A stretch of 64,000 nucleotides of DNA from the IMG/VR virus record IMGVR_UViG_3300021364_000012, positions 1 through 64,000 of that record; one strand, 5' to 3'. Within the stretch, counting starts at the first letter, position 1; the number at the start of each line of letters is the position of its first letter. Under the pieces are notes generated by a model that made no database searches, was not told the origin of the DNA, and saw only the letters and a program-made list of their open reading frames with translations. The DNA comes from a virus. Shown here one piece after another: positions 4,213 to 62,977 of this stretch. The position numbers were made by a program, and so were the translations under genes.

Positions 4213-5163
4213 TCAGTAGATTACGTCTTTTATTTCAAAGCCACCCTCTTCATCGAAGAAAGAAAACTCTTTCACTTCAAAAGAACAAACGGGGCTTTCA
4301 ATGTCTGAATTAATGTCAACGCCTAAGAAGCTCGCTTCTTCTGGGATGATGTACAAGACCATCTTTTTATTTTTAAGGTCTAAAAGTATCTGTGAGCTAG
4401 TGTACATGTTGTCGGTCTTACGGACAACATTGAACGGACTATCTAAATCTACATATTTCTGCGAATACAAAGAGGGGGCTATTTCTTCTATTTTAAGATT
4501 GGGCAAAGTATCAAGCGTGATCTGCATCCTACGCTTACTACTCTCTGCATTCTCTCCCAAGGTATATCCAGCATCAGGATACTTCGACCCATGATTACTA
4601 CGAACTAAGATTTCATCTTGAGCTATTTCTTGAAAATAAGGTGCGTGTTTCGCAGTGTGCTCAAGAGAAAAAGCACGAAGCCCATCTGAAACAATAGTAT
4701 GTCCTCTAATACCACCTTCAAAAGACACTAGCTCTTCCATCGCTTCTTCAAGCGTCTTACATTCTAAGGCTCTCAGAATTCTTCTAGCGTCTTTAGAGCC
4801 TATTGCACCAAGAACTGCCCCTTCACCTTTTTTCTTACCTGCCTTCCCTTCTTTCTCATCCCAAAGAACCATCAAAGCGGAGTTAACAAGTCCAATACCA
4901 AACTCATTGACACCTTCAACCCAACCAGTGTTTTCGTCTTTCATATAGACAATCTCAACACCTCTTGAAATCGTATGGTAAATCTTAAGTTCAGGAGAGT
5001 AATTTCTATCTCTATTTTTAAAGAGCACTCTATGCCCTTCTGAATTGACGTGTGCTATCACGCAGGCTTTCTTTTGAATGCTGCGGTAAATGTGAGTCTC
5101 TGCCACTTTCAGTCTTGAAAGTTTCTTGCTCGCTATTTTTGTAATTTCACTAGAAATAGCCAT
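4213..5163 (-). CDS. Ntn-hydrolase (C45/acyltransferase-like) with a 33-aa basic propeptide
   Basis: C34-VIAH...LFKNRDR, EGVNEFG, RSNH and SSKRR motifs of Cys-nucleophile Ntn hydrolases. Confidence 0.7.
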   Translation of the reverse strand: MAISSEITKIASKKLSRLKVAETHIYRSIQKKACVIAHVNSEGHRVLFKNRDRNYSPELKIYHTISRGVEIVYMKDENTGWVEGVNEFGIGLVNSALMVLWDEKEGKAGKKKGEGAVLGAIGSKDARRILRALECKTLEEAMEELVSFEGGIRGHTIVSDGLRAFSLEHTAKHAPYFQEIAQDEILVRSNHGSKYPDAGYTLGENAESSKRRMQITLDTLPNLKIEEIAPSLYSQKYVDLDSPFNVVRKTDNMYTSSQILLDLKNKKMVLYIIPEEASFLGVDINSDIESPVCSFEVKEFSFFDEEGGFEIKDVIY

Positions 5164-5193
5164 CGAAGCCTCCTTAATCTAAATATGAGACAA

Positions 5194-5205
5194 ATATAAG
5201 AACTA
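5194..5205 (-). promoter_or_regulatory. Candidate late promoter TAGTTCTTATAT
   Basis: Variant of the recurrent motif, about 30 nt upstream of the Ntn-hydrolase ATG. Confidence 0.5.
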
Positions 5206-5991
5206 CCAATCCAACTTCAAAGAAACTATATTCGTCAGATCGTATTTCTCAACCCCTTTTGGAGGGCGAGAGTCATAATTAAACTTAAACGCATTGGTGA
5301 TATATGTGTTCTTGTGGAATCTATAGTTGAACCCAAGCTCTGAGAGTATTCTAAAGTCTCTAAAATCTGAAACCTTTGGCTGATAGTATGCAATGAAAGA
5401 ATACGAAGAGTGGTCTGCCACAATATTTCTAATAGAAGCATAGTTTGTTAGCCTAAAAACAAAGCCCTCACCTCTCTCAGAAATAAGGGACTCATATTCA
5501 ACCATACCCCCAACACCGAAAGCGAGTACGTCTGAAATCGGAATCTTAACTGTACTCTCATCTCTCTCTTCATACCTTAAACCAAAACCTAAGAGTTGGC
5601 GTAGTTTAAGATCGCTAAACCTATCACTCTGATATTGAGTGAACCCCTCTACACCCAAAAAAGATTCATACCTGTCTACAAGAACACCCAAGTCATCATA
5701 GAACATGTAAGTATTTCTAACATGTGCAAACTTAGCGTCTTTATAGTCTGAATCATTACTTTGACCGTAATCATAACCACCCATAATGAAAAAATGATTA
5801 GATTGTGTGTTGTGGTCTAGTCTCAAAGAAGAACTCAAATCAAAGACATTGTTGTTCCCTCTTTTAAACTGAGAGCCTAAAGAAAGAGTGGTCAAAAAAC
5901 CTTTCTTTGAAGCTCTCATACTCTCAATATTAACTTGAGAGTACGAGACAAAAGGAAGAAGCAATAAACTCAGAAAGATCAACCGCACCAT
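5203..5991 (-). CDS. Outer-membrane beta-barrel protein, DUF481/YdiY-like
   Basis: Signal peptide plus 'QVNIE', amphipathic beta strands, 'YYQP..SDF.D.R', 'YDSRPP.GV.KYD', C-terminal Trp. Confidence 0.75.
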   Translation of the reverse strand: MVRLIFLSLLLLPFVSYSQVNIESMRASKKGFLTTLSLGSQFKRGNNNVFDLSSSLRLDHNTQSNHFFIMGGYDYGQSNDSDYKDAKFAHVRNTYMFYDDLGVLVDRYESFLGVEGFTQYQSDRFSDLKLRQLLGFGLRYEERDESTVKIPISDVLAFGVGGMVEYESLISERGEGFVFRLTNYASIRNIVADHSSYSFIAYYQPKVSDFRDFRILSELGFNYRFHKNTYITNAFKFNYDSRPPKGVEKYDLTNIVSLKLDW

Positions 5992-6031
5992 AACGAACTC
6001 TTTTCTCTTATTTTTAAAAAGAGAAAAGAAT

Positions 6032-6043
6032 ATAAATAAACTA
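6032..6043 (-). promoter_or_regulatory. Candidate late promoter TAGTTTATTTAT
   Basis: Matches the recurrent motif; followed by a hairpin at 5999-6029. Confidence 0.55.
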
Positions 6044-23764: not shown

Positions 23765-26674
23765 TTAGGGTGTCACGGCATCTACAAAGATACCTAAAGC
23801 CTTTGCCCAATTCTTACGCTTATATCTCTTGAGACTCACCCAAAAAGGACGATCTGAAACCCATTTGCGTATCTCGCTATTGAGCTTATCCGCACTAACC
23901 TTACGCCTCTTAAATTCTGTGACCTCATCGAGGAGGCGAGAGTAAAACTCAATGTCATCCAAAGCATGAATAGAAATCAGCTCGGAGTCCATACCCTCTC
24001 TCGCATACTGTACTCTTAACTCTTTCTGTTTCTGTTTCATATCCAAACGAAACTTTTTTCCTCTTGTTTGACCTGGTAACCCTGCTTCCTCTATGTTCGC
24101 TTTGTTAGCGTAATGCTGTTGCATGGCGTGGACTAGCTCATGTCCTGCTATCGTTTCCCGATCTTGTAGATACCTGAGAGGGAGTTCAGTCATATTCTTG
24201 AGAACATTAAAGATGATGTGGTGAATACCATCCCAATAATAGTTAGCTGCACCATGTGAGGACTCTTGAAGATGCACTGCGATTAAACCTAGTTCATCAT
24301 CTTCAATGTAGTATCTACCTCCGTCTTTAACCTTGTACTTTGACAGTCGCTCAACCGCTTCTAGGTAATCATCACGCATTATGGCGAGGATGTATTTCTT
24401 ATCCCCTGTTGTCCATTTTTTAAGCTCACGAATTATTTCGATTTGCATGTCTGAGATCGTCCCAATGAGAGCCTTATTCCCTCTTGGGTTATTAAAGATG
24501 CTCTGTGCATCAAGTTGATCTACTTTTGCCTTAAGCTTATAGAAATCAGGGTAGGTAAGATTTGCAGACTTTAACTGATCTGCTATTTCTGAAAACGCAC
24601 GTTGTGCGTTATTTACTTGGAAGATGACCTCTTCCTCATCATGCTCACCTCTTTTGACCCCAAGGGGTAGGTATCCAAGGTCTTCAAGTATCCATTCAAG
24701 ACCCTCAACGGACTCAGCGTTCAGCCCCCCTTTGGAGCTATCCTCTTTTTCCCTTCTAAGCCAGTATTGGGCGAGTAAGCCTTTACCTATTTCTGATACT
24801 TGGTCGATGAGATGTTGTGGGGGTCTGATTAATCCTGCTTTTCTTAAAGGAGAGCCGTTGTTCTCAAAACCACTGTCATAAGGTATGACTCTAGCAGAAC
24901 CGCTACCACTATCATGCACATAACCTAAATCTAAGTTATTAGCGGGCTTTCTGCCATTAGCCTCTGACTTGTCAAGATTACGATACTTCAAGTTCGGAGA
25001 GTCGGGGGAAGGTCTGCCAATATTTCTAGCAGTGTCTCCATTCGGTAAAGAGCTTCTGTTTTTACCTTTAGGATTCTCTGAATCTCCGACAGGAGTCCCT
25101 GTCGTAAAGCTAGAAAGAGAGTCGGGTGGCGAGACTTCCCTATAGAACTCAGCTCTCTTATTGATTTTACTATTTCTCTCATAGAGCCGTTTAGCTAGTA
25201 GAACACCTGCCTCATTATCTGAATAATAATGGACTCCACGATCTATCCGAGACTGTGCCACCATATTTGCCACCTCTAATAACTCTCGCCTTAAAGAGGG
25301 GTATTTCTCAGATAGCAAATAAGCAACATAATACGCCTGTGTCGTATGTCCACTAGGATATGAAGGAGTCTGTGCTGACTCTAAGTAGTCAAACTTAAAG
25401 TCAAAACCGTACATTTGTGCGAGCACGTTTGGTCGAACGACGTTGAAATAGTTTTTATGGGAATAAATAATATCTGATATTTCTTCCATAGTATTTCTAA
25501 TAGTAACAGCGTCCTCTGAAATACCATATTCACTTAAAAGAGAAGAAAAAAGATACTCTGATTTCTGATCTAAAAAGTAACGGAGACTCTCGGAGTTATA
25601 TTTATTCTCATATTGATGAGAGATTAAAGGCAACTCACTGAGTAAATACTCATAAGTAGGTGGGCTAGGGATCAAAATCTCAGTAAGATTCGCCTTCTTC
25701 TTCTTGATCTCTTTAGCCTCCTCACTAAAAGTCGGAGTGTTAACAGGCTTTTGCCCACGATGTTTAGCCTCTTCCCTCCTCTTATTCTTAGCAAGCTCTG
25801 CCCTTTCTTCTTTGGGCATCCCGTATGCTTTTTCTCTTGGCATACATTTGAGGGGTTTCTTTCCGTTGCTTGTAACAGTAGCCCATTCTTTCGTACTAGA
25901 CACGCCGCATGGGCCAACAATGTCACCTGGTTCATACTCTTTCTCGTCTCCGTCTTTTTTCTTAACAGTGTGTTTGATTGGAGTGATAGCGATCCAATCC
26001 CCCCAAGTAGCTCGCTCATCGGGTTTACCACCACCATGCCCCGAGAACCAAGTATCTAAGCCACCATGCCCCGTATTTTTCATTTTAGAGTCATCTCGCT
26101 TCGACACCTTCAAGTATCGAGAAACAATTTTAGTACCCATATCTTGACTCTTAGAGCCTGTTTTGCCCCCATAGCAGTCAACATATGGACGACAAGAAGC
26201 CTTCTCTGAGAACCCCATGTCCTCACAACTCTTAGACTCACAATGCTCTCTATCCCACTTACGAGGCATCTTGTACGAGGTGTCTTTCCCCGAAGAGTTC
26301 TTTCTCAGAGAAGGATTTCTGAGCATGGTATCTCTTGTCCTGAAATCCTTGTTCCTACCCTTGTTAGGCTTGAACCCAAATCTCCTATAAAATTTAGTCA
26401 AACGAGACACCGAACTAGCACCAAAGTCTGTGGAGGGAGAAAGAGATAACATAACCCCATTATCATCTGCCCAAGAGATAATCTGAGACATAACCTCTGA
26501 GCCTAAGCCTCGTTTTCGGTTTTCAGAGGGAATCTGAACTGTCATGATCCTGACGATAGGGGCGTGATATTCATCGCCACTCGATAGGAAAGAAGTCCAT
26601 AAGACAAGACCCTGATATTGGCTCTCTAAGTTACCTTCTAGTGTCTTTAGCGATTGCTCTAAAGTAGGCGACAT
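23765..26674 (-). CDS. Multidomain protein: GNAT-like + Cys peptide + DUF5872-like half + PAP2 phosphatase + HExxH metallopeptidase-like domain
   Basis: 'RKRGLGS...FYRRFGF' (GNAT); 'VRP...TPSYPSGH...SRI.RGVHY.SD' (PAP2); 'GHELVHAMQ'. Confidence 0.75.
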   Translation of the reverse strand: MSPTLEQSLKTLEGNLESQYQGLVLWTSFLSSGDEYHAPIVRIMTVQIPSENRKRGLGSEVMSQIISWADDNGVMLSLSPSTDFGASSVSRLTKFYRRFGFKPNKGRNKDFRTRDTMLRNPSLRKNSSGKDTSYKMPRKWDREHCESKSCEDMGFSEKASCRPYVDCYGGKTGSKSQDMGTKIVSRYLKVSKRDDSKMKNTGHGGLDTWFSGHGGGKPDERATWGDWIAITPIKHTVKKKDGDEKEYEPGDIVGPCGVSSTKEWATVTSNGKKPLKCMPREKAYGMPKEERAELAKNKRREEAKHRGQKPVNTPTFSEEAKEIKKKKANLTEILIPSPPTYEYLLSELPLISHQYENKYNSESLRYFLDQKSEYLFSSLLSEYGISEDAVTIRNTMEEISDIIYSHKNYFNVVRPNVLAQMYGFDFKFDYLESAQTPSYPSGHTTQAYYVAYLLSEKYPSLRRELLEVANMVAQSRIDRGVHYYSDNEAGVLLAKRLYERNSKINKRAEFYREVSPPDSLSSFTTGTPVGDSENPKGKNRSSLPNGDTARNIGRPSPDSPNLKYRNLDKSEANGRKPANNLDLGYVHDSGSGSARVIPYDSGFENNGSPLRKAGLIRPPQHLIDQVSEIGKGLLAQYWLRREKEDSSKGGLNAESVEGLEWILEDLGYLPLGVKRGEHDEEEVIFQVNNAQRAFSEIADQLKSANLTYPDFYKLKAKVDQLDAQSIFNNPRGNKALIGTISDMQIEIIRELKKWTTGDKKYILAIMRDDYLEAVERLSKYKVKDGGRYYIEDDELGLIAVHLQESSHGAANYYWDGIHHIIFNVLKNMTELPLRYLQDRETIAGHELVHAMQQHYANKANIEEAGLPGQTRGKKFRLDMKQKQKELRVQYAREGMDSELISIHALDDIEFYSRLLDEVTEFKRRKVSADKLNSEIRKWVSDRPFWVSLKRYKRKNWAKALGIFVDAVTP

Positions 26675-26676
26675 GA

Positions 26677-28638
26677 CTACCCTCTCAACCTTTGTCTGAG
26701 AAGATAAACATTCGTCTCATGAGCTGAAGCTAAAGACATGATGAAATCGTCCATCCCTAAAGAAAGAGTCTCTTGCTGTTGAAGGTAGTCGTAAACTCTC
26801 TTAAACACCTTCTGAAGTGCCTCTTCCACAAACAACGCTCTTAAAATAGGATGATCTTGAGATTGCATCTCTACAATAGGAAGTAAAGCATTTGCCATAA
26901 TCTGAGCTTGATCTACAGGAGCCACTGCTTCTGGACCATAAGAACCGACTATCTTTTCTGCAAGAGTGTCTATTTCTTCCACAAGTCCTGTGTAGAGTCT
27001 TTCCATAAGAAGGTGATCACCATAGTAAGGAGAGCCTTTAACTTGCCAATGTGATGTCCAATGTGCCCAATGAGCACCACGAAGACAAGCTAGAAATATC
27101 TGAAGGGCAGTTAGACTGTTCATTGGCATACTCGCTTTCTTTTTTCTCCACTTACCACCTAGTCGCTTATATTCTTTGGCGGCGTATCCATTCGCATAAG
27201 CACTAGGATAAGTCTCAAAACCTTCACCACCCTTTACAGGTTGAGAACACTCTCCATTCTTACATACCTCTTTAGAACGATCTCCTCGAACTAAGTCGAG
27301 AATGTCTTCCCAAAGGTCAGGGTCGATAGGCTCATTGTCTCCTGCGGTTCGCATAGAGAAATAATCTGAAAGACTCTCAACATATATTTCTTCGAGCATC
27401 TTCTCTTGGTTTGGTTCTTGCCAATCCACAAAAGCAAAGAAATGAGAAAGAGGCATCTCTAAGTAACCTACCTCAGAACCCATAGAAATAATATTTTGAA
27501 TTGGGTTTAAATGATACAAAACCACATCGCAACCTAAAACCTTACATGAGATGTTGAGCAACATCTGTAAATCTGAAGCTCTGCGAGTTCCTGGTCTTTT
27601 GTATCGCTTAAGTGTATTCTTGTGCTTTCTTCTCCAACTTTTAACTCTTCGCTTAATCTTAGATTTGTTTTTTCTATAGTAAGCTCTAGCTCTTCTTCTA
27701 GCCTGTTGAATAGAGCCACCTGTTTGTCTCTTTCTTTTTGCTCTCTGCCTCTGCTGTTTAGGTCTCGAACGACTACCCGGACCTTTCTTGTAAATAGCAC
27801 CTGCATCTATTTCTTCAGAGAATTTAACCTCTGAGGTTCCTTCTAAAGGAACCAAAACTTCTTTATACATCGCAGACATGACATCAAGAACAGCCTGTTT
27901 CTTCATTTCCTCAAACAACATATAACTAGCCTTTCTTTTATTTCTCATATCTTTATTCTTTTTAGCAGGCGAAGAATATCCACCACCTTCGTATCTCTTA
28001 TATCTTTCAGGAGATTGCCTTCTTCTTTTCTGATACATAAGAATACGTCTTTTATTTCTTCGGTAGTATCGTCTTCTTTGTTGTATTTGCTTACTACGAT
28101 TTGTACGCATAACTTTCTTGCGATAAAGATCGTAAATCCTTCTGACTCTGCCTTTTGTTTTGCGTTGTCTTCTTTTAGGAGGACGAATATTTATTTTTCC
28201 ACGACCTGTATAAGCACTTTCTATTTCTGAAGAAAGAACTCTTCTTTTCAGTCCTGTGGACTGAGATTGATCTATATGTGGGTTTCCGTATTCATCTCCA
28301 GGAACTCCCGAAGACCTTGGTCTTTTATGTAAGGGCTTTCCATCAGGATGGTCAGAAATAGCAAACTCACTCTTGGGCTTTTTATTCGTATTCCCTGCTG
28401 AGTCTGAAGGCACATTATGTATAGGAGGACCAGCTCTTTGCTCGTCTCTACCTTTCGGATGACCACTCGGTAAAGGTAAGACTCGATCTCTTTGAGGTTC
28501 ACCATCAGCGTAGTCTGGACGACTTGGGTCAGGACTAGAAGAGTCTTCTTGAAGACCGTCTTGACGGTTCTTCTCTACCCAAGTCTTCACCCCTGCTAAA
28601 TCTTGAAAGGGCTGACTATGTGAATAACTGCGATCCAT
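26677..28638 (-). CDS. Multidomain protein: Arg/Lys-rich segments + PSAY motif + C-terminal Dps/ferritin-like domain
   Basis: 'HWQVKG..YYGDH...ERLY...IDTLAEK' (Dps-like ferroxidase motif) at 26677-27129; two protamine-like tracts. Confidence 0.75.
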   Translation of the reverse strand: MDRSYSHSQPFQDLAGVKTWVEKNRQDGLQEDSSSPDPSRPDYADGEPQRDRVLPLPSGHPKGRDEQRAGPPIHNVPSDSAGNTNKKPKSEFAISDHPDGKPLHKRPRSSGVPGDEYGNPHIDQSQSTGLKRRVLSSEIESAYTGRGKINIRPPKRRQRKTKGRVRRIYDLYRKKVMRTNRSKQIQQRRRYYRRNKRRILMYQKRRRQSPERYKRYEGGGYSSPAKKNKDMRNKRKASYMLFEEMKKQAVLDVMSAMYKEVLVPLEGTSEVKFSEEIDAGAIYKKGPGSRSRPKQQRQRAKRKRQTGGSIQQARRRARAYYRKNKSKIKRRVKSWRRKHKNTLKRYKRPGTRRASDLQMLLNISCKVLGCDVVLYHLNPIQNIISMGSEVGYLEMPLSHFFAFVDWQEPNQEKMLEEIYVESLSDYFSMRTAGDNEPIDPDLWEDILDLVRGDRSKEVCKNGECSQPVKGGEGFETYPSAYANGYAAKEYKRLGGKWRKKKASMPMNSLTALQIFLACLRGAHWAHWTSHWQVKGSPYYGDHLLMERLYTGLVEEIDTLAEKIVGSYGPEAVAPVDQAQIMANALLPIVEMQSQDHPILRALFVEEALQKVFKRVYDYLQQQETLSLGMDDFIMSLASAHETNVYLLRQRLRG

Positions 28639-33139: not shown

Positions 33140-34015
33140 TTAGCGAGTAACGGTGAGTCGTGCAAGACCCTTCGGGTTATAGGCCCCAATACCCAAGTTC
33201 TCAAATACGCTGAAGCCAATGGTACGAGCCTTTGGATCGTCAGCAGAGAGAACGGTAAGCTCAGTACGAACAGGAATACGACCGAACATCTCAGGCTCAC
33301 AGCAGACGTAAACAGTTCCAACAGGAACAAGACGGCTAGTGATAATCTGAGCACCCCAAAGGGTAGCCTGAAGACCTGTCTTGAGAAGTGCCGCTTGGCT
33401 CTCAATGTCGAGAATGTCACGACCGAACTTACGGATGTCAGCGTAGTCACGAGCATTCATGAATACACGGGCAACACGAAGATCGTGACGCTCGATGAGG
33501 CTGTATGCGTCAGCAAGAACAGCACCATTAAGTGGAGCAATAACAGGGATGTCAGCGTTAGTCTGACCAGGAACGCTGTCAAAGCCAGAAGTCGCAACAG
33601 CATCAAGAATAGCGAATACACGCTCGTCCTCTGCCGCCTGAATCTGTGCTCTAGCGAGGTCCTGTGCTCTCTCGATGAGATCGAAGCGTCTTTCCTTAAT
33701 CTGAGTCAATGGAATCTCAGGGTTAGAAGCAATCTCAAAGAGAGGGAAGATCACACGACGTGGCTTGGTGATAGCGAGGATGTTCTCACCCTCTTCACCA
33801 ACTACAAAAGCAGTCACGTCTGGATCTTTGTCATAAATCGGCAAAGCACCATCAGGAAGTTGCTCTACGAGGAAGGTCTTACGACCAACGCTCGTATAGT
33901 CTCTTCTTAGTCTGAGAGGCTGAGTCATGCTCGCCGCTAACTTACTACGACCCTGTGGAGTCTTGATGTAGTCAGAAATAATCTTCTGCTTTACTGCGTT
34001 ATCTACTGTACTCAT
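33140..34015 (-). CDS. Major capsid protein (HK97-like fold)
   Basis: Position after protease, scaffold and decoration genes; strong terminator; 'LAASMTQPLR.RRDY..VGRK..LVE.LP.GALPIYD'. Confidence 0.85.
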   Translation of the reverse strand: MSTVDNAVKQKIISDYIKTPQGRSKLAASMTQPLRLRRDYTSVGRKTFLVEQLPDGALPIYDKDPDVTAFVVGEEGENILAITKPRRVIFPLFEIASNPEIPLTQIKERRFDLIERAQDLARAQIQAAEDERVFAILDAVATSGFDSVPGQTNADIPVIAPLNGAVLADAYSLIERHDLRVARVFMNARDYADIRKFGRDILDIESQAALLKTGLQATLWGAQIITSRLVPVGTVYVCCEPEMFGRIPVRTELTVLSADDPKARTIGFSVFENLGIGAYNPKGLARLTVTR

Positions 34016-41416: not shown

Positions 41417-42313
41417 TTAGATTTCAGCTAACTTCAAAACACGCTCACTCACGAAAAAATAAGGGAGCGACTTTAACCCTATTTCTTTGGCTTTTTGTAA
41501 ACGATGTAGCCCATCAACAACGGTTGGAAGTCCTGATTTGCTAGGTGCAATAAGAATAGGTGCGGAAACGTCAGCCCTTCTGACTCTAATAGGGTCTGCA
41601 TCAGCGAAATCTAAAACCCAAATAAGGCGACCTATTTCCATTCTTTGAATTGGATCGTCTTCCACAAGAGAAAGAACAGCATTTAAACTATATTTACGAC
41701 CTTCATGTGTGAAAGTAGAACTCTCTTCTTCTCTGTAAGACGCCACCCTCTTGTGGTTTAAAGAAAGGTCTCTATCCCCACCAGCTCCTCCACCCATATA
41801 CTGAATGTCAGGGTCTTCAACCTTCATTCTTTTTCGCATCAAATCTTTGCGTGGAGGCTTCTTTTTTGGTTTCTGCTTTACTAGACGCTCTGTCTCTCTT
41901 GTTTCTTTCTCTTCTGTAGAGAGTGTTGCGTATTTCTTGTGTGTGCAAAGGTCTACACTAGCCATCTTACGAACATCAAAACAAAGAGGAGCAAACTCTT
42001 TTCTGAGCTTCCTCAAAATCTGAGCGATTACTAAATAAGCAAGGTGCGACCTATCTGTGTCTTTTAGATCAATCCAACACCCTTGGAGGAGACGTATCTT
42101 CTCTGCCTTGCCATCTAGTAATTCTACGAACTCAAATCTCTTATCTAAAGAAATAGCTTCTTCAAACAAAGCCTCTATCGTTAAGAAATGCTTTCGGATA
42201 CAGTCTGGACATCTTTTTCTAGGATTGTTTAAGTGATCTTCTAAAAGAGACATCTGTTTTACGGACTCTCTCAAATTAAAGAGAGGACTCATTATCGGTA
42301 ATAAGTTTCCCAT
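41417..42313 (-). CDS. Modular protein: Cys/His helical domain + basic linker + ParB/Srx-like domain
   Basis: 'LLEDHL...RCPDCIRKHFL'; C-terminal 'APILI...VVDGLHRL.KA...G'. Confidence 0.7.
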   Translation of the reverse strand: MGNLLPIMSPLFNLRESVKQMSLLEDHLNNPRKRCPDCIRKHFLTIEALFEEAISLDKRFEFVELLDGKAEKIRLLQGCWIDLKDTDRSHLAYLVIAQILRKLRKEFAPLCFDVRKMASVDLCTHKKYATLSTEEKETRETERLVKQKPKKKPPRKDLMRKRMKVEDPDIQYMGGGAGGDRDLSLNHKRVASYREEESSTFTHEGRKYSLNAVLSLVEDDPIQRMEIGRLIWVLDFADADPIRVRRADVSAPILIAPSKSGLPTVVDGLHRLQKAKEIGLKSLPYFFVSERVLKLAEI

Positions 42314-42370: not shown

Positions 42371-44047
42371 TTAGAATCTTCCGTCATCACCCTCATCCGG
42401 AGGAGTATATTTCAAACCAATATTCTGAGCAATCTTCTCTATTACTTCAGTGTTCTCAGCGAGCATACGTCCTGCTTCTCCATAAATACCACGGAGAACT
42501 TCATTGAACTGAGAGTCGTTGAGAGTCCACATATCTCTCTCTAGCTTTCTCTTAGTTGACTCAGGGTCAACATTCAAAAGCTCAAGGATAATGTCAATAT
42601 CCAAAGAACCCTTCTGATAAAGATTAAAGAGAGCATCGAAGGTGTCTTGGTTATCTCTCAAACCAAGACGAGTAAAGCTAAGACTTGGATGAACGACTAT
42701 TTCCTCCCCATCGTCATCTTCTTCTATGAAGCCCATGCGTCTGCACATCGGCTTCAAGATGTTCTCCTCTACCATCTCTTGAAGAACTTCACGCATCAGC
42801 ATGTAGCGTGTATTGATCACTTCAAGATTGATACGATCTCCACTATAGCTCGACTCCCCTGAAAGTAGAGACTCAGTTACGCCAAGACCTGCATACATCT
42901 GTCTGTCGGTCATGTCATACTCTGAGCCAAGGTCAAGAAGACGTTGGTCTGACCCCATCTCTTCCCAAGAAATTTGAAAGTTAGCTATGATAGAGTAATC
43001 GGGGTCTTGAAGAGCTAAATCCACTTGCTCTCTCAAGGCTTCGACATCTGCCATGTCCATATCTTCTGCATAAACCAACCGAATAGGCGTCATATGTCGA
43101 GAAGCAATAGAGGTGTTAGCTTGCCTCAACTTATCTCTGTACACCAATATTCTGAGACAACGCTCCAACATAGAGTGTCCTCTCGGCTCGTATTGGGATT
43201 TCTTACGAGCCATATAATAAACAAAAGAACCCTTCTCGGCATCACTATTTAAAGGGATATTTCTCCCTTCCCGAATAGCATCCACCACATCTTCAGGCAT
43301 CGACTCCACAATTCTCATTGCTTCAGGGTCTTGGACAGAAGCTCTCTCCACGACATTCTTAGTCTTAGAATCAGGAATAAGCTCTATGATTTTTTGATCT
43401 GTAAAAGGAAAAGACTCCATATGTACTTGCTCTGGAGGAAGCACACGAATACCTGTCCAACCCTTGTAGTTTTTCTTCATCCAAACATAAGCACGATCAT
43501 CAGCGTCTTCATATCTCTCCCAAAGAACTTCAATCTCTCCATCGGGAGTAAGCTGATTCTTTTTTTTATGTGTAACTTCTTTAGGCATGTCTGGATTATT
43601 GTCTTCACAAAAAACAAAAACCTCACCTAGAAGATTATACTCATGCAATATTTCTATGAGACGGTGGAGCAACCCCACTCTTCTTGCCCATTTCTCACAA
43701 AAACGAAGAGAAGCCCAAGCCATCTCTCTATTCTTAGACTTAGGCATACCAAGTCTAATCTTGGAAAGCGGTAGCTCCGTGTGAAGGTCTACAGCTTGAC
43801 CCACGAAAGGGTCTGTCCGATAGAAGAAACGGAAATAATTACGTTGTTCGTCTTGGCTCTGCGGAAGCTCTAAAAAATCCGTAGATAGCTCTGGAGAATA
43901 AAAGTTACCTCCGGAACCCATCTGTGTTCCACTCGTTGTCATCGCCACTTTAACACGGGACTTCATCTGAGAAGGCTTAAGAGGTCGAGTAGTTACGTCT
44001 CCTTTAGTCTTAACTTCTCCTACTTTTAAAGGCTCATCACTAGACAT
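42371..44047 (-). CDS. Portal protein
   Basis: 558 aa just downstream of terL; 'RFFY.TDPFV..AVDLHTELPLSK', 'GEVFVF', 'GLGVTESLLSGE'. Confidence 0.85.
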   Translation of the reverse strand: MSSDEPLKVGEVKTKGDVTTRPLKPSQMKSRVKVAMTTSGTQMGSGGNFYSPELSTDFLELPQSQDEQRNYFRFFYRTDPFVGQAVDLHTELPLSKIRLGMPKSKNREMAWASLRFCEKWARRVGLLHRLIEILHEYNLLGEVFVFCEDNNPDMPKEVTHKKKNQLTPDGEIEVLWERYEDADDRAYVWMKKNYKGWTGIRVLPPEQVHMESFPFTDQKIIELIPDSKTKNVVERASVQDPEAMRIVESMPEDVVDAIREGRNIPLNSDAEKGSFVYYMARKKSQYEPRGHSMLERCLRILVYRDKLRQANTSIASRHMTPIRLVYAEDMDMADVEALREQVDLALQDPDYSIIANFQISWEEMGSDQRLLDLGSEYDMTDRQMYAGLGVTESLLSGESSYSGDRINLEVINTRYMLMREVLQEMVEENILKPMCRRMGFIEEDDDGEEIVVHPSLSFTRLGLRDNQDTFDALFNLYQKGSLDIDIILELLNVDPESTKRKLERDMWTLNDSQFNEVLRGIYGEAGRMLAENTEVIEKIAQNIGLKYTPPDEGDDGRF

Positions 44048-48775: not shown

Positions 48776-51127
48776 CTATAGCTCAATACCGCCAAACAAC
48801 ACCTCGCCTATTTTTTCAGGACTCGGAGACTCCTCAGAAATAGTGAAGTTGTCATTGGCAGTTAGATTGAATTCCGACTGATCGTAATCATTCACAAAAA
48901 GAGAAGCTGTCCTCTCAGCGTCAGAAGAGTTAGCTAACCTAATCATCTCTTTCTGATAGCTGTCTTTATCTTCTACGATTTCCTGTGATTGATCCACTGC
49001 GTATTTATTATATTTCTGACACTTACCGCCAACATTAAACACACAGCCTCCGCACTTAGCGTTCTTAAGAATTGCAGGAATCTGATTAGCTCGATGAATT
49101 AAAGCCCCCTTGTCACAACCCTCAGTGCCTGTCGTCATGTAGGCTTGAGAGTCTACATAAGCGTGTCCAGAAATACCTTCATGCTCTAACCTCAAAGATG
49201 CAACTCTCTCCTTGTGAAGGTCTAGGATATTCTGAGAGAACCTTGAAGCTAAGAGCACATCAAGCTCTTGACCTGCACTACCTTCTGACATCTTCTGTCT
49301 AAGCCAAGTAGCTACTTTATCCGACTGTACCTCATGTGCAGTCTTCATAGGAGCTGAAGCACTCTTAGAAATATGTGCCTCATATTTATGCCCACTAAAC
49401 TCGACTTTTTTTGCAGAAACACCTTCTTTAGCAAGCCTAGAGAGCGAAACATATTTATCATCACCCTCAAGAGACATCGCACGATTAGCGTCTGACTCTG
49501 AGATAAATCCATTAGAAACAAAGTGATCTATTCGGCTCGCAATCTTCTTCCCCTCTACCACATCTAAAGAAGACACTTCCCCGACAACCTTATTTCTTAC
49601 ATCTGTGAGGACGTGTGCTTTTACAGAGCCTTCATAACTCTGAGTCTCTTTAGGTCGTGCTAAATACTCAAAGACCGATGCCACTTTTTCTTCTGGCGTG
49701 TTCTTGCCTGAAGTAACCTTCTCTACTTCATCATAAGAAATAAGCCCACTAGAAATAAGTTTAGCCACTTTAGCCATTGCCATCTTATTTCTTTTACCCA
49801 ACTCCACCTTTTCAGAAGGCGTGAGAGATGCAGATACGCTACTTCTCTTTGGAACTAAGTAATGAGCTTCTTTGCCCTGACCTTCATATACTGAAGACTT
49901 GTTTGGAGTAGACGCTAGATCATAGAGACGGTCTATCTTCTGCTGTGCAGTCTTGTCCGAAGAAATAACAGCACCAACTTGCTCCGAGTCTAAAAAACCT
50001 TCCGAAACAAGTTGTGAAGCAATCCTATCTAAACGAACCTGTTTAGGGTCTGTTTTTTCCTCAATAAAGAAATCACTATACTCAGAAGCTTGAAGCTCTC
50101 TCTGTGCTTCTTCTGAAGAAATAGACTCAAAATCAAAAGATTGTGTAGGAAACCATGTGTTAGCAACATGAGTATTACCCTCTAAAGACTTAGAGTCTAA
50201 AAACGCTTGTTGAAGCATAGACTTATAACTAGAGCCTGAAACTTTAGTGACTCCAAGAGATTGAAGTCTAGGCATCAAAGTAGAGTAAGCCTTCTTCCAA
50301 GGAATTACATCTACAACCTCTTTCCCTAAGAATCTATCAAACGCACACCCCTGTTTTGAAGGGACAATGTAGAGAGAAGAAGCACATCTTTTATTTATAA
50401 CTTCATCCCATTTGCCGTTAAACAGACCTGGGAAGTACGCTTCTTTTAAGTACACCGTACCATGAAGACCATACTCGGAAGCCAACAACTCTGAAGCACT
50501 CTTTCTTTGTTGCTCAGAAGGAATTATTTCTTCTAAGTCTTTCAAGAGGTCTTCTAGGCTTTCACCGTAAGCCATCTTACGCATCGACTGCTCCACTTTT
50601 TCTCGATAGTCATCGGCAGGAAGCTCAGATACTTCTTCATATGTATTAGTGTATTTCTCGTGGACTCTGTTTTTATTGGGAACCCTCTTCAAGCCGTCTG
50701 TAGACTCTCCTAAGCCCCAAGATTCTTCAAGAGCTTTCATCTGATTAACTTGAGGGTGCTCAAACCTACCTTCAGCAAACTGCTCAAGAACTTCTTCATG
50801 CGTTCTTGAGCCTCCTTCATCTTCTTTAGGCAGAGTCGCCAGCCAAGTGTGATCTACAAGAGGAACAAGCTGACCTGCATCTTTTGTAAAATCCGAAAGG
50901 TCTAAATCTATTTCTCTCTCGACACCTGTAGGTAAATCTGAGTTTAGTTCACCTTCAGGTGGAACCATCCCAAAAGGAAGAGAAGAAATACCCTTAGCTT
51001 CAGGAAGACGTGCCTTATCTTCGACACCATTCCCATACTCAGTGTCGAAATGAAACCCGTCTAGCATATAGTTAGAGCCGTTCGTGAGTGAAAACCCACC
51101 ATTTGGAAGTTTGCTGTTCTTACTCAT
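48776..51127 (-). CDS. Large protein with three internal helical repeats and a C-terminal Cys cluster (probable head protein)
   Basis: Repeats 'LVSEGFL', 'LISSGLI', 'FVSNGFI' each followed by Y/F.G..AH; 'CGGCVFN..GKC'. Confidence 0.6.
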   Translation of the reverse strand: MSKNSKLPNGGFSLTNGSNYMLDGFHFDTEYGNGVEDKARLPEAKGISSLPFGMVPPEGELNSDLPTGVEREIDLDLSDFTKDAGQLVPLVDHTWLATLPKEDEGGSRTHEEVLEQFAEGRFEHPQVNQMKALEESWGLGESTDGLKRVPNKNRVHEKYTNTYEEVSELPADDYREKVEQSMRKMAYGESLEDLLKDLEEIIPSEQQRKSASELLASEYGLHGTVYLKEAYFPGLFNGKWDEVINKRCASSLYIVPSKQGCAFDRFLGKEVVDVIPWKKAYSTLMPRLQSLGVTKVSGSSYKSMLQQAFLDSKSLEGNTHVANTWFPTQSFDFESISSEEAQRELQASEYSDFFIEEKTDPKQVRLDRIASQLVSEGFLDSEQVGAVISSDKTAQQKIDRLYDLASTPNKSSVYEGQGKEAHYLVPKRSSVSASLTPSEKVELGKRNKMAMAKVAKLISSGLISYDEVEKVTSGKNTPEEKVASVFEYLARPKETQSYEGSVKAHVLTDVRNKVVGEVSSLDVVEGKKIASRIDHFVSNGFISESDANRAMSLEGDDKYVSLSRLAKEGVSAKKVEFSGHKYEAHISKSASAPMKTAHEVQSDKVATWLRQKMSEGSAGQELDVLLASRFSQNILDLHKERVASLRLEHEGISGHAYVDSQAYMTTGTEGCDKGALIHRANQIPAILKNAKCGGCVFNVGGKCQKYNKYAVDQSQEIVEDKDSYQKEMIRLANSSDAERTASLFVNDYDQSEFNLTANDNFTISEESPSPEKIGEVLFGGIEL

Positions 51128-60909: not shown

Positions 60910-61002
60910 GTAGATTGCCTTTCAAAAACTTGAGCACAAGAAGATATACCGAAAAAGCTATATTGTTTTTTGCTCAATTTGACTAGCACTCTACACAAAA
61001 AA

Positions 61003-61524
61003 TTAAACTTCAGAGTCTCCTTCTTTTTCTTCTCCGTCCCACTCTATTTCCACCTTCTCTTCTTTATCTTTATTATCTTTTGGGTTGATCCATTGACTGA
61101 CCACACCTTTAAGCTGAACTTGATCTTCTGTCCTAGTCTTAATGACAGTCTCCCCCTTAAACACGGAGAGCTTGTCTATCACAGCAGACTGAAGCTCAAA
61201 GATTTGCTCTCTAAGCAGTTGCATTTGTATCTGTGCATCCCTCAAACGGGCTATTAGAGCTTCACGATCTCCATTGGCGTTAGCCAACTTGTCTTTAAGC
61301 TCTTCTACTTCTGAAGGGTCTCTACCCGAAGCTATCGCAAGCATCGAAGAAATACTACCCGTAAGCATACCTATTATTCCAATAAGAATGTCTCGGTTCT
61401 CCTCCACAATCTTTGTGGTAGATAAAAAATAAATCAACTCACAGATAGCCAACATAAAGACGACACTAGCCCACCACCCTCTCTTGGCTTTTTCTGACTG
61501 TGTGAACTGTTTGTTTGTGCTCAT
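61003..61524 (-). CDS. 2-TM membrane protein with C-terminal coiled coil
   Basis: Two TM segments, then heptads; ATGA overlap with the cyclase stop codon. Confidence 0.7.
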   Translation of the reverse strand: MSTNKQFTQSEKAKRGWWASVVFMLAICELIYFLSTTKIVEENRDILIGIIGMLTGSISSMLAIASGRDPSEVEELKDKLANANGDREALIARLRDAQIQMQLLREQIFELQSAVIDKLSVFKGETVIKTRTEDQVQLKGVVSQWINPKDNKDKEEKVEIEWDGEEKEGDSEV

Positions 61525-62381
61525 TTCCTACCTCTCTTCTTAGGTTTCTTTTCCTCTTTTTGATTAAAAATATATTCTATGAAAGCGTCATACTCAGGCA
61601 TGTAATAAGGAAGACCAATCCAAGTCCTCACCATTGGTCTCAAAGACATTTGAAATAAAAAATAGAGAATAAAAACAAGCTCAACTATGGCAAGTCTCCA
61701 AATAAACCACCAAAACCAATCCAACAACTTACGATCTCTAGCTCTTTTCTTTATATACTTCGGACCTCCAAGTCTTTTGACTTTCTCTGAACCTGGAGGA
61801 GGCTGTAGCGATTCGATGGTTTGCCCTACCGCATATATTTCTTGAGGTGAAGAAACGCCCTTAAATTTATACATGCCTACACAGACATATCTTGTGTTTT
61901 TTGGTGTGAACTGATTTGTTCTATTTCTTATAACTTGAAAAGCCTCTTTAGTCAGAAGAACCTGACCTGCTTGACATAAAGACATAGTTCGAGCGGCGAT
62001 ATTCTTAGAAAGACCCTCCAACTCAACTCTCTTAGCTCCCACACCAACATAAAGATCATCTTGCTGTACTTCTATGACTTTCCCCCAATGAACTCCAATC
62101 CTTGTGTTCAGCTTAACTTTTTTAGGGATTGTTTCTTGGTACGCCAAAGCGAAATTTACTGCGTCTATTACTCTTTCAAAAGAAAGAAGAAAACCGTCAG
62201 ACCTGTCTATTTCTCTACCATCATACTTATATACAAGAGAGCGAGCGAGTCGATCATGGACTTGAAACCACTGTGCGGCAACCTTTGCACCTGCTCTTTG
62301 AACAAATGCGGTAGAGCCAATTATGTCTAAAAGAACAATCGCTAAGTATCGCTCTTTCATTACTATTCCATGATGTGACAT
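61521..62381 (-). CDS. Class III nucleotidyl (adenylate/guanylate-like) cyclase with C-terminal TM
   Basis: LLDIIGST, SDGF, RIGVHWG, NIAAR, GQVLL, FKG motifs. Confidence 0.85.
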   Translation of the reverse strand: MSHHGIVMKERYLAIVLLDIIGSTAFVQRAGAKVAAQWFQVHDRLARSLVYKYDGREIDRSDGFLLSFERVIDAVNFALAYQETIPKKVKLNTRIGVHWGKVIEVQQDDLYVGVGAKRVELEGLSKNIAARTMSLCQAGQVLLTKEAFQVIRNRTNQFTPKNTRYVCVGMYKFKGVSSPQEIYAVGQTIESLQPPPGSEKVKRLGGPKYIKKRARDRKLLDWFWWFIWRLAIVELVFILYFLFQMSLRPMVRTWIGLPYYMPEYDAFIEYIFNQKEEKKPKKRGRK

Positions 62382-62437
62382 TTCTCATCTCAACTTAATA
62401 CAAGAGCAATCTCCCCTTCAGACATGAAAGAAATAGC

Positions 62438-62977
62438 TTAAACTTTAAGAGGATTCCCATCGTCGTCAAAAAGACGCTCAATGTCGTATGTGCCGTCTTC
62501 CGCCAACTTAACCGTCCAAAGGTCTTTCGTTGACTTGTGTACAAGATCACCCGACTGTGCTCCTGTCAGCATTGTATTAGACAAGAGGGAAGGACCTGAG
62601 AGAACGATGAAATCTTCAAGACCTGCTACTTTTTTAGAAGCAATTCTTAAGAAATCAGGAGATACGCAATGCACCTTATCTCCCTTACCATCCCACTGAA
62701 TGAAGATACCCTTCTCAAAATGAGTAACCTCTCCACTTGCAGTCCTCACTTTGACTACAGTCCCTTTAGTACCAGAAATAGGAAGATCGTTCGGGATCAG
62801 TAGACCATTGTTCGTGTTAGCTACAACACGAACACCCTCTACAAAATCTTTTACTTTTTCTGAACTCAACTTCTCTCTTGTTCGGTCTACTAAAGCACTA
62901 ACACTTGGCGTATTAAGACACTCATCCAAGCTAGATGTTTTAGAACTTGAAAAAGAAAAATCATCTATAAAGCTCAT
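62438..62977 (-). CDS. Hypothetical protein with SH3/KOW-like core and RTAS/RIAS junctions (possible head protein)
   Basis: 'GTKGTVVKV...IQWDG'; motif variant TTGTTTTTTTAT at 63023-63034. Confidence 0.55.
   Translation of the reverse strand: MSFIDDFSFSSSKTSSLDECLNTPSVSALVDRTREKLSSEKVKDFVEGVRVVANTNNGLLIPNDLPISGTKGTVVKVRTASGEVTHFEKGIFIQWDGKGDKVHCVSPDFLRIASKKVAGLEDFIVLSGPSLLSNTMLTGAQSGDLVHKSTKDLWTVKLAEDGTYDIERLFDDDGNPLKV

Follow-up and report, generated by a model that had tools for sequence, protein, structure and literature searches.

A [Lys/Arg]-x-Ala|Ser motif as a candidate prohead-protease cleavage code in the head module of an uncultured giant phage related to phage G

The window analysed here (64,000 nucleotides of IMG/VR virus record IMGVR_UViG_3300021364_000012) is the head and tail module of an uncultured myophage of the ~290-kb class, a giant phage belonging to a clade around Bacillus phage G. 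We propose, with a probability of roughly two in three and on the basis of sequence comparison, that the motif [KR]-x-A|S is the cleavage code of the prohead protease of this phage, with a herpesvirus-like Ala|Ser specificity and a layout resembling the herpesvirus R-site and M-site. Cleavage at the motif, its reading by the protease encoded at 37136-38485, and the packaging or injection of the products are inferred, the last by analogy. The core of the proposal, a code with Ala at P1, is supported by the enrichment of the motif, its restriction to one class of proteins, its conservation and turnover in about 40 relatives, and the positions of putative autoprocessing and scaffold-release sites, an arrangement usual for prohead proteases. 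The initial annotation had already suggested an Ala-P1 code read by the prohead protease, unlike the known Glu-P1 codes, and this part finds indirect support, although the code has to be narrowed to [KR]-x-A|S.

Results and Discussion

Enrichment of the strict motif

The initial annotation described basic-x-Ala joints at module boundaries as probable cut sites, and all 20 peptides that it quoted were found in the named ORFs (20/20). Extended to all Lys-x-Ala joints of the large multienzyme proteins, the idea was not borne out. Loose [KR]-x-A sites show only a mild excess in the window (191 versus 154.5 expected from composition-matched shuffles), and sites with a residue other than Ser at P1' are not significantly enriched in the putative head-internal set (68 versus 58.4+-6.6, a count reached by 42 of 500 shuffles). 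The strict form, [KR]xAS, is strongly nonrandom in the window proteome (41 versus 13.8 expected), and R.AS (24 versus 6.0, p 2.3e-8) ranked first among all gapped tri-residue motifs of the window in an unbiased scan. In the window and in two whole genomes, the residues found above expectation are confined to Ser at P1', Ala at P1, and Lys/Arg at P3. Enrichment at P1' is seen in none of them for N, E, D, M, or T, and neither statistics nor comparison with relatives supports a cut at the cited junctions with these residues. Hydrophobic residues are enriched at P3' and P4', and in relatives the Ser of individual conserved sites swaps with Gly, Phe, or Ala. The codons used at [KR]xAS in the window are diverse, indicating that the signal acts at the protein level.

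The motif is also restricted by protein class. A set of 12 proteins, made up of scaffold, protease, and putative head-internal proteins, has 29 strict sites versus 5.6+-2.4 expected (reached by 0 of 500 shuffles), whereas the shell, portal, terminase, and tail proteins of the window have none (2.4 expected) and its enzymes have 4 versus 1.9, which is not significant. The N-terminal 40 residues of the window proteins are rich in strict sites (9 versus 1.9 expected). The shell and portal genes are as follows:

33140..34015, minus strand: major capsid protein (MCP), 291 aa, 89% identical to LR745208.1 and 39% to phage G gp27
42371..44047, minus strand: portal protein, 558 aa, phrog_16240 (E 3.6e-35)

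The MCP has neither a delta domain nor a strict site and is therefore not predicted to be cut; its family, used as a negative control, averages 0.2 sites versus 0.2 expected. The portal has no strict site either (family, 0 versus 0.2 expected), and the cited leader site VKVA|M, found in 10 of 18 sequences and only in close relatives, is unsupported. MCP, decoration, portal, and TerL proteins of the relatives all have strict sites at or below expectation.

The same pattern recurs in 41 related contigs and two near-complete relatives (G001 and G004), although counts over these relatives are not phylogenetically independent. R.AS ranks second in G001 (71 versus 23.9, p 5e-15), and strict sites within the N-terminal 40 residues number 39 versus 7.4 in G001 and 33 versus 6.6 in G004. 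Among cultured relatives, in sets of proteins chosen post hoc, gp328, the protease, and gp332 of Tunturi_5 have 10 sites versus 1.6 (2 versus 6.2 in the remaining locus), and gp4, gp7, the portal, and gp19 of phage G have 11 versus 1.6. The motif is not enriched in Myrna and E3, two actinophages whose proteases are homologous to this one; hence, cleavage specificity cannot be read simply from the protease family.

The protease

37136..38485, minus strand: prohead (head maturation) protease, 449 aa, phrog_18299 'head maturation protease' (E 6.6e-15)
37631..37642, minus strand: KSA|F in the protease linker (Ala284), candidate autoprocessing site
38402..38413, minus strand: RVA|S, protease residues 25-28, candidate N-terminal processing site
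37367..37423, minus strand: strict sites KEA|S (357) and KKA|S (372) at the start of the C-terminal helical domain

The protease opens with an N-terminal extension, followed by a catalytic domain (residues ~53-264) into which a Cys/His cluster is inserted. Behind this domain lie a disordered linker (265-323) and, at the C-terminus, a helical domain (349-447). Homologs annotated as proteases are found in Tunturi_5, phage G (gp19), and Rhodococcus phage E3. The top fold matches of residues 53-264 were the proteases of varicella-zoster virus (VZV; Z 7.3) and human cytomegalovirus (HCMV; Z 5.6) in an AF2 model with a pLDDT of 57, and refolding the domain alone gave a worse result than the full model, so the assignment of an assemblin fold is a weak one and counts against the cleavage-code reading.

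Strict sites average 3.1 per protease in the relatives versus 0.4 expected. In the linker, which varies in length, A284 is invariant in 16 protease sequences; P3 is Lys or Arg in nearly all of them, P1' is Ser, Gly, or Phe, and the next residues form an acidic stretch. Right behind the catalytic domain, KVA|S or KIA|S is also present in phage G gp19 and Tunturi_5 gp331. KSA|F at Ala284 is thus a candidate autoprocessing site, which would be analogous to the herpesvirus R-site. At RVA|S, R25 and A27 are invariant and S28 is replaced by Ala or Gly in three relatives, but the whole N-terminus is conserved, which makes this weaker evidence. At the start of the helical domain, site 372 is kept in 16 of 28 relatives, and the column K355-x-[A/G] is conserved.

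The scaffold and the 783-aa protein

34822..37104, minus strand: putative scaffold protein, 760 aa, between the protease and the decoration/MCP genes
34885..34896, minus strand: REA|S, 21 residues before the scaffold C-terminus
48776..51127, minus strand: head-module protein of unknown fold, 783 aa, with 8 strict and 23 loose sites

The putative scaffold has five strict sites (117, 145, 269, 716, and 739) and no internal repeats that we could find. Its 30 orthologs average 7.3 strict sites per protein versus 0.8 expected, while the scrambled controls [KR]xSA, [DE]xAS, and SAx[KR] are at expectation in the same proteins. REA|S directly precedes the conserved tail ELSKLWESAPDVSKFF, and a strict site lies 21-27 residues before the C-terminus in 28 of the 30 distinct orthologs listed; one exception, the scaffold of contig L035, has KSA|A at this position. 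P2 varies there among E, T, Q, and V. By its position, REA|S is a candidate analogue of the herpesvirus M-site.

The 783-aa protein, which the initial annotation did not list among its examples, has 23 loose sites versus 6.3+-2.4 and 9 [KR]xA[SG] sites versus 1.2 expected, and neither internal repeats nor Pfam or PHROG matches were found in it. Orthologs are present in five related genomes, with 9-10 sites in each of the two that were counted. Some sites are conserved within the family and others are shifted inside the same region, the number of sites being kept.

Basophilic kinases classically recognize Arg or Lys at -3 from Ser. On these grounds, the motif would also fit the target of another modifying enzyme, such as a Ser kinase (R-x-x-S) phosphorylating head-internal proteins. 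We consider this very improbable: Ala is strictly required at -1, conserved sites can have Gly, Phe, or Ala in place of Ser, and the motif is located in the protease linker and ahead of the scaffold tail, all of which fits proteolysis; in addition, no kinase was noticed in the annotation of the window.

Under the cleavage-code reading, the protease would most likely cut after Ala in [Lys/Arg]-x-Ala|Ser, with Gly, Phe, and Ala tolerated at some P1' positions. Scaffold, protease, 783-aa protein, and head-internal proteins would first assemble together within the procapsid, and a cut at the linker site would then free the protease from its own C-terminal docking domain, as at the R-site. The scaffold would next be clipped ~21 residues from its C-terminus and so released from the shell, as at the M-site, while scaffold and 783-aa protein would be cut up at 5-10 further sites. 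Finally, packaged proteins would lose short N-terminal leaders, and the multidomain proteins encoded between portal and protease would be split into modules.

Leaders and a possible docking function

An amphipathic helix starts at many strict sites (RTA-SEVLRSLE, KVA-SLYL), and some of the signal might therefore reflect docking instead of cleavage. The motif would in that case be an addressing signal capping short helices, which would attach to the scaffold, the shell interior, or the protease, comparable to encapsulin cargo-loading peptides or the T4 capsid-targeting sequence, with cleavage elsewhere or absent. Small proteins that open with a shared helix (MRTA-SEVLRSLEARIARLE or MISQKLA-SLEARIAKLE; 15 in G001 and 13 in G004) are in line with this, as are the motif at the helix start in 11 proteins of each of these two sets, sites merely 4-7 residues from the N-terminus, which are odd positions for a cut, KVA-SLYL-type tags recurring close to protein ends, and the hydrophobic enrichment at P3' and P4'. 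Docking would leave unexplained, however, the invariant Ala in a disordered, acid-flanked protease linker of variable length, the 5-10 sites dispersed over the scaffolds, the site directly ahead of the conserved scaffold tail, and the interchange of Ser, Gly, Phe, and Ala at P1'. In addition, about half of the leaders have a second site 15-35 residues downstream, as expected for leader removal. We therefore regard docking in place of cleavage as unlikely, although the two functions are not mutually exclusive.

Comparison with known maturation systems

Herpesvirus proteases have an established Ala|Ser specificity, and their cleavage sites have a hydrophobic residue at P3, whereas the phage motif has Lys or Arg there. 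The herpesvirus assemblin (pUL26/pUL26.5, MEROPS S21) thus resembles the phage protease in the predicted Ala|Ser cut, and its VZV and HCMV members are the top fold matches of the phage catalytic domain; this likeness is one of predicted fold, and homology at the sequence level was not seen. In the R-site and M-site layout of herpesviruses (PMC4498786), one site lies between the protease domain and the C-terminal scaffold-binding part and another ~21-25 residues from the scaffold C-terminus, before the shell-binding tail, as the candidate sites do in our phage. In contrast, protease and scaffold are separate genes here, the phage protease has the Cys/His insertion, the scaffold has many more sites, and the motif is also found on the leaders of other proteins.

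There is also a likeness to the prohead proteases T4 gp21, phiKZ gp175, and SPN3US gp245, whose systems include capsid-targeting leaders and ejection proteins. There, too, a single short motif recurs in scaffold or core proteins, in the N-terminal propeptides of internal proteins, and in the C-terminus of the protease itself, with multiple sites per propeptide. The packaged proteins are believed to enter the host by ejection (PMC5694885, PMC10052503). Those proteases, however, cut after Glu, at (L/I)-x-E, (S/A/G)-x-E, or A-x-E, as opposed to Ala at P1 and a basic P3 here, and they differ from our phage in that its MCP is not predicted to be cut.

Module boundaries and multidomain proteins

41417..42313, minus strand: 298-aa protein just downstream of the portal, with an N-module, a mobile module, and a ParB/Srx-like C-terminal domain
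38490..41405, minus strand: 971-aa ORF, probably a fusion or a nested pair
38520-38531, minus strand: KVA|S, strict site 10 aa before the C-terminus of the 971-aa ORF
23765..26674, minus strand: 969-aa protein of the 'polyvalent' type, with GNAT (48-103), PAP2 (406-494), and HExxH
26677..28638, minus strand: 653-aa protein with very basic tracts and a C-terminal Dps/ferritin-like domain (DUF5856 and Dps matches at 528-591)
27130-27141, minus strand: KKA|S (502), which with RKA|S (237) and RRA|S (354) makes up the strict sites of the 653-aa protein
4213..5163, minus strand: Ntn-hydrolase-like protein, AAT family (PF03417, E 2.6e-4, a weak match)

The claim that the sites sit at module boundaries is weak overall, as a [KR]xA site is no more than 6 aa away from only 9 of the 25 homology breakpoints (null 5.6, p 0.08), but it holds clearly at the protease linker, the scaffold C-terminal tail, and the 298-aa protein (128 and 191). 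This last protein has a conserved N-module (1-118), KMA|S, a small mobile module (129-191), RVA|S, and the ParB/Srx-like domain (phrog_17560 match at 191-277). Its strict sites are at 118 and 191, and 16 HSPs end at residue 128 and 24 at residue 191. The counterpart of this protein stops 17-20 aa past the first strict site in two contigs (L002, L038), near the second in five (L021, L044, L033, L037, L028), and is joined to the next gene in three (L024, L011, L013). Genes of the portal-to-protease block thus fuse and split at or near strict sites among relatives, carrying ParB-like or, in the relatives, Topo IB, nucleotidyltransferase, or HAD domains. Chains of unrelated enzymes cut apart, as had been envisaged, would fit this block and plausibly the Dps fusion, but find no support in the 969-aa protein, which has no strict site.

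For the joints of the 969-aa and 971-aa proteins we find it rather probable that basic-x-Ala is a leftover of gene fusion, with processing either absent or due to the proteins' own HExxH peptidase domain. The final ~110 aa of the 971-aa ORF (from Met862) are a stand-alone small gene in many relatives, and in at least 8 of them the start Met and basic N-terminus of this gene (MRKQSS, MKKRST, MKTSSV) line up with the QKKA|T joint, which is 5 aa from a breakpoint at residue 861; the motif is not conserved, and QKKA|T finds no support as a cut site. Likewise, NKRA|E of the 969-aa protein corresponds to MRHKRFA|D at the N-terminus of the G001 172626 product. The 969-aa protein has loose sites below expectation (5 versus 8.3), its modules are rearranged compared with G001 172626-174179 (block ends at 328 and 508), and P1' at these ends is N/V and E/D, while N, E, D, M, and T are enriched nowhere and the breakpoints taken together show no significant association with [KR]xA. 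Polyvalent proteins have been predicted to cleave themselves by means of their own metallopeptidase domains (Iyer et al. 2017, PMC5512222). Against such leftovers, module 132-328 ends with a conserved KKKA in the window as well as in G001, where the sequence behind it differs, and the HExxH region has no peptidase family match in Pfam or NCBIfam. This explanation covers only a subset of the cited sites and leaves the strict-motif signal unexplained. The KVA|S near the end of the 971-aa ORF is conserved at each position (K/R, A, and S, 9 of 10 each).

The polyvalent proteins known from phages and conjugative elements (Iyer, Burroughs, Anand, de Souza, and Aravind 2017, PMC5512222), which include P1 DdrB and MuF/gp7-type head proteins fused to effector domains, are likewise large mosaics of unrelated enzymatic domains among virion genes, here with GNAT, PAP2, HExxH, ParB-like, and Dps domains, and the extensive domain shuffling between relatives of our phage is a further likeness. 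They differ in that autoproteolysis by an internal metallopeptidase is predicted for them (PMC5512222), whereas here a subset of joints has a head-protease-type motif, and a domain search detected no MuF domain in 41417-42313.

In the 653-aa protein, homology blocks 435-506 and 498-652 join at KKKA|S. Its G001 homologs have no strict site there, with KKEG|S in one and none before the Dps domain in the other. The Ntn-like protein has KIA|S at residue 11 and KKA|C ahead of Cys34, and its G001 homolog has KKTA|C before the same Cys, behind a pro-region of 163 aa.

Head gene cluster and its relatives

The head and tail genes of the window, which comes from a 75.9-kb viral contig, are arranged in the following order.

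Head and tail genes of the window (coordinates, strand, product)
16725-21488, minus, tail sheath
23765-26674, minus, 969-aa protein with GNAT, PAP2 and HExxH domains
26677-28638, minus, 653-aa protein with basic tracts and a Dps domain
33140-34015, minus, MCP, together with a putative decoration protein
34822-37104, minus, putative scaffold of 760 aa, next to the protease
37136-38485, minus, head-maturation protease (phrog_18299)
38490-41405, minus, 971-aa ORF, between protease and portal
41417-42313, minus, 298-aa ORF, between protease and portal
42371-44047, minus, portal
44306-47419, minus, large terminase with a LAGLIDADG intein
48776-51127, minus, 783-aa protein of a family without known match

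The MCP shares 89% identity with its homolog in LR745208.1, a 485-kb uncultured phage, 48% with that of Tunturiibacter phage Tunturi_5 (309 kb), and 39% with gp27 of Bacillus phage G; Tunturi_5 and phage G are the two cultured relatives. The intein of the large terminase comprises an Intein_splicing match (residues 163 to 535) and a LAGLIDADG homing endonuclease (PF14528, residues 343 to 422), and all matches to terminase families lie past residue 480. Three tandem paralogous genes at 6535-8670 (minus) code for proteins of 223 to 239 aa with a common N-terminal pattern, ...VTDLFPNK(S/T)Q, and have one homolog in LR745208.1. A tRNA search of the window found none.

A serine-restricted motif in putative head-internal proteins

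The initial annotation had proposed that late polyproteins are cut by the prohead protease at basic-x-Ala sites and packed as cargo, and all 20 peptides that it quoted are found in window ORFs. The loose motif ([KR]-x-A with any P1' residue) is nevertheless near chance, with 191 sites in the window against 154.5 expected (5 against 8.3 in the 969-aa "polyprotein" and 4 against 3.1 in the portal), and its significance is lost once the sites with Ser at P1' are dropped. When all three-residue gapped motifs were scanned without bias, R.AS came out on top (24 versus 6.0 expected; p = 2.3e-8). Varying one position at a time in the window, we found Ser over-represented at P1' (41 versus 13.8) and G, E, N, D, C, M, F, and T each at expectation, with enrichment limited to Ala at P1 and to Arg or Lys at P3. 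The same position-specific pattern is found in two near-complete related genomes that were fetched whole, where the strict motif [KR]xAS occurs 123 times versus 53.5 expected (G001, 290 kb) and 114 times versus 46.6 (G004, 316 kb). A DNA-level word (e.g., GCTAGC) was ruled out as the cause, since the codons used at the motif are diverse and mirror background usage, as befits a protein-level signal.

Motif counts in sets of window proteins (observed versus expected)
12 scaffold, protease and putative head-internal proteins, [KR]xAS: 29 versus 5.6±2.4; reached by 0/500 shuffles
The same 12 proteins, [KR]xA[not S]: 68 versus 58.4±6.6; reached by 42/500 shuffles; not significant
8 shell, portal, terminase, sheath and tail proteins, [KR]xAS: 0 versus 2.4
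12 enzymes, [KR]xAS: 4 versus 1.9; not significant

The enrichment of late over metabolic genes for which the initial annotation proposed a test holds for the strict motif in the scaffold, protease, and putative head-internal proteins; the shell, portal, and tail set lacks it, and for the loose motif it is not significant. The best reading of [KR]-x-A|S, to which we give about two chances in three, is that it is the cleavage code of the prohead protease, with the cut falling between Ala and Ser.

Conservation of the motif among relatives

A scan with the protease as query retrieved 41 related viral contigs at 43 to 98% identity.

Mean strict sites per protein in families of the relatives, observed versus expected (these counts are not phylogenetically independent)
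Scaffold (30 distinct sequences): 7.3 versus 0.8
Protease: 3.1 versus 0.4
41417 family: 2.1 versus 0.6
30493 family: 1.7 versus 0.3
38490 family: 1.4 versus 0.6
MCP: 0.2 versus 0.2
Terminase: 0.2 versus 0.5
Decoration: 0 versus 0.1
Portal: 0 versus 0.2

The control motifs [KR]xSA, [DE]xAS, SAx[KR], and [KR]xAT were flat in the scaffold and protease families. In Tunturi_5, gp328, the protease, and gp332 hold 10 strict sites versus 1.6 expected and the remaining locus 2 versus 6.2, while in phage G there are 11 versus 1.6 in gp4, gp7, the portal, and gp19 and 7 versus 5.4 in the remainder, the proteins having been chosen post hoc in both cases. Two actinophages with a distantly homologous protease and MCP, Myrna and E3, were examined for the motif and showed no enrichment, so an extension of the code to them was rejected; it therefore appears to be confined to the giant-phage clade. 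In these two actinophages (Rhodococcus phage E3 gp77 and Mycobacterium phage Myrna gp97), the homologous protease lies inside a protein of 895 or 1211 aa that is encoded immediately upstream of the MCP region and resembles the protease-scaffold fusion of herpesviruses. The annotation of Myrna gp97 as "tape measure" looks like an error.

The protease and its linker site

The product of 37136-38485 matches the head-maturation family phrog_18299 (E = 6.6e-15), its homologs carry annotations as head or capsid maturation proteases, and it is placed in the gene order portal ... protease, scaffold, decoration, MCP. VIA-align comparison of residues 53 to 264 of the AF2 model (pLDDT 57) gave as top match the VZV protease (Z 7.3, rmsd 3.0, 111 aligned residues), with the HCMV protease at Z 5.6. 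Because these scores are modest and the model is mediocre, we consider a herpesvirus-protease-like fold of the catalytic domain probable, and no more. Foldseek also listed T4 gp21 and the HCMV protease, but only at E>0.1, and a domain-only AF2 refold was set aside because its pLDDT of 43 was below that of the full-length model. Single-sequence and profile searches of the protease against PDB returned nothing relevant, and the protease, the scaffold, and the 783-aa protein had no match in NCBIfam or Pfam. The Ser and His residues that are invariant in the protease alignment (H58, S117, H130, S137, S181, and H207) are only catalytic candidates, given the poor model. Residues 184 to 207 also contain an invariant Cys/His cluster (C184, C191, C194, C205, and H207) that has the look of an inserted zinc ribbon, unusual within the catalytic domain of a prohead protease.

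Residues 265 to 323 are a disordered stretch in the AF2 model. The linker is variable in length and sequence except for Ala284, which is invariant, with K or R at P3, S, G, or F at P1', and an acidic run after the site. Directly behind the catalytic domain, phage G gp19 and Tunturi_5 gp331 have KVA|S or KIA|S.

Sites in the scaffold and the 783-aa protein

In 28 of the 30 scaffold orthologs, a strict site with variable P2 lies 21 to 27 residues from the C terminus, directly before a conserved tail, ELSKLWESAPDVSKFF; one of the two exceptions (L035) has KSA|A at that place. The richest protein of the window is the 783-aa protein, with 8 strict sites and 23 loose ones; it was absent from the list of the initial annotation. 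A related-locus search with this protein as query found no match, and its orthologs came from searching the related contigs. This family keeps the number of sites at 8 to 10; some are conserved, and others have shifted a few residues without leaving their region. Tandem internal repeats were ruled out as a source of the enrichment, since self-comparison of the scaffold and the 783-aa protein gave no matches. Together, the invariance of Ala284, the C-terminal scaffold site, and the turnover of sites in the 783-aa protein suggest that the motif itself is under selection. Other peptides cited earlier fared worse: for the protease peptide RKKA|E, the scaffold peptides KKKA|D, KKQA|M, and KRQA|E, and the portal peptide VKVA|M, enrichment gives no support, and their conservation is low or tracks that of their flanks.

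N-terminal leaders

Strict sites are also abundant near the N termini of proteins (within the first 40 residues, 9 versus 1.9 expected in the window, 39 versus 7.4 in G001, and 33 versus 6.6 in G004). Scattered along these two genomes are small proteins that share an N-terminal amphipathic leader, 15 in G001 (L053-L067) and 13 in G004 (L068-L083), with the sequence MRTA-SEVLRSLEARIARLE or MISQKLA-SLEARIAKLE (forms also given as MRTASEVLRSLEARIARLE or MISQKLASLEARIAKLE). The motif stands at the start of the helix in 11 leader proteins of each genome, and about half of the leader proteins have a second site 15 to 35 residues downstream. The arrangement resembles a T4-style capsid-targeting leader flanked by cut sites. 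The main rival explanation is that the tetrapeptide could be part of a docking helix, serving as a helix cap for binding; the opening of all these proteins with one amphipathic helix and the position of the motif at its start favor docking, but the second, downstream site does not. The docking and cleavage readings are compatible.

A single leader-like N terminus, MKTMKSVIEELESRVAQLEKQ, is present in the window, without the strict motif, in 23396-23740 (plus), a plus-strand gene amid minus-strand late genes. A second motif, L-I-R-[LI]-A-x3-P-E-L-R, was found at the N terminus of a 203-aa protein (11470-12081, minus), twice in a 322-aa protein (51725-52693, minus; residues 9 and 142, the latter directly behind RNA|S), and in the G001 proteins 198183-199253 and 283647-283958, and may be another addressing tag.

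Comparison with known maturation proteases

To our knowledge, the specificity of the prohead protease is experimentally known for only a few phages. For large phages, the rule known so far is a cut after Glu. The motifs of T4, phiKZ, and SPN3US are numerous in the core or scaffold and also form N-terminal propeptide sites of internal proteins and C-terminal autocleavage sites of the protease (PMC5694885). The distribution of sites is the same here, but P1 is Ala instead of Glu. Herpesvirus assemblin, which cleaves Ala|Ser, offers a second comparison. It releases itself at the R-site, behind the protease domain, and the scaffold is clipped near its C terminus at the M-site (PMC4498786). The predicted sites mirror this layout here, with the linker site resembling the R-site and the C-terminal scaffold site the M-site.

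We tentatively suggest, at slightly less than even odds, that phage-G-like giants keep, or converged on, the herpesvirus rule (Ala|Ser, one site behind the protease for release, and another before the shell-binding tail of the scaffold for maturation), extended by portable N-terminal leader helices. The prohead protease, scaffold degradation, leaders, and packaged proteins are already known; what computation adds is the predicted specificity and a layout of sites like that of herpesviruses. A literature search found no paper that describes head proteases of phages cutting by a basic-x-Ala|Ser rule, the mass-spectrometry study of the phage G virion being outside its reach. If true, such a rule, with sites placed like the R-site and the M-site, would tie capsid maturation in tailed phages to that of herpesviruses by a concrete functional link that goes beyond shared folds, and would allow the scaffold or core, trimmed, and probably packaged proteins of uncultured giant phages to be predicted from sequence. 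Should the herpesvirus rule itself apply, the tetrapeptide and the leader would make the whole packaged ("injected") proteome readable, including zymogens activated by head maturation, such as the Ntn hydrolase.

Mosaic proteins and candidate cargo

The proposal that sites fall at module boundaries has no significant support overall, with 9 of 25 homology breakpoints near loose sites versus 5.6 by chance (p = 0.08). Sequence comparisons support the associated claim of chained cargo in the portal-to-protease block; the claim is plausible for the 653-aa/Dps protein and is not supported for the 969-aa protein, QKKA|T, and VKVA|M. Strict sites lie at residues 118 and 191 of the 298-aa protein, whose similarity to relatives is interrupted at 128 and 191 (16 and 24 HSP ends). 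In some relatives, its gene stops 17 to 20 residues past the first site or near the second, and in others it is joined to the next gene, giving proteins of 1146 to 1341 aa; the longer relatives carry a Topo IB, nucleotidyltransferase head, or HAD domain. Its C terminus is ParB/Srx-like, as backed by phrog_17560, and has a DGLHR motif, which we take to be ParB/Srx-like as well.

Three further sites are plausible candidates for processing. The KKKA|S site at 502 of the 653-aa protein lies where two homology blocks join, ahead of the Dps domain, and the G001 homologs have no strict site there. G001 also keeps the KTA|G of 51124-51723. In the Ntn-like hydrolase, KKA|C precedes Cys34 and is kept in G001 as KKTA|C behind a 163-aa pro-region; it may be a head-protease site, and Ntn autoprocessing would explain it equally well.

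The 969-aa protein, presented earlier as a cut chain, has no strict sites, and P1' at the cited joints is not the favored residue. Two of its blocks do stop at cited joints, 132-328 at KKKA|N and 508-632 at NKRA|E, but the second joint is the counterpart of an N-terminal MRHKRFA|D in a G001 protein. QKKA|T in the 971-aa ORF lines up with the beginning of genes that stand alone in at least 8 relatives, which indicates a gene fusion or nested start at that point. Lys-x-Ala at domain joints is not always a processing site, some cases being gene-fusion scars. The last ~110 codons of this ORF, from Met862 (38490-38825 within 38490-41405, minus), are a separate gene in many relatives, so the window version would be a read-through fusion or carry a nested start.

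Processing by an internal metallopeptidase has been proposed for polyvalent proteins (Iyer et al. 2017; PMC5512222). The large mosaic proteins fit this class, with at least two unrelated effector-type domains per polypeptide in a virion-gene context (GNAT and PAP2, plus HExxH, in the 969-aa protein; basic tracts and Dps in the 653-aa protein; a ParB-like C terminus in 41417-42313; Topo IB with NTase or HAD in relatives). Their genes lie next to head and tail genes, and by analogy we infer that the proteins would be packed in the virus particle and injected into the host. The 969-aa and 653-aa proteins (23765-28638, minus) are made of the same 4 to 5 blocks as their two G001 counterparts (172626-175296) in another order and partnership, which points to recent domain shuffling between adjacent genes.
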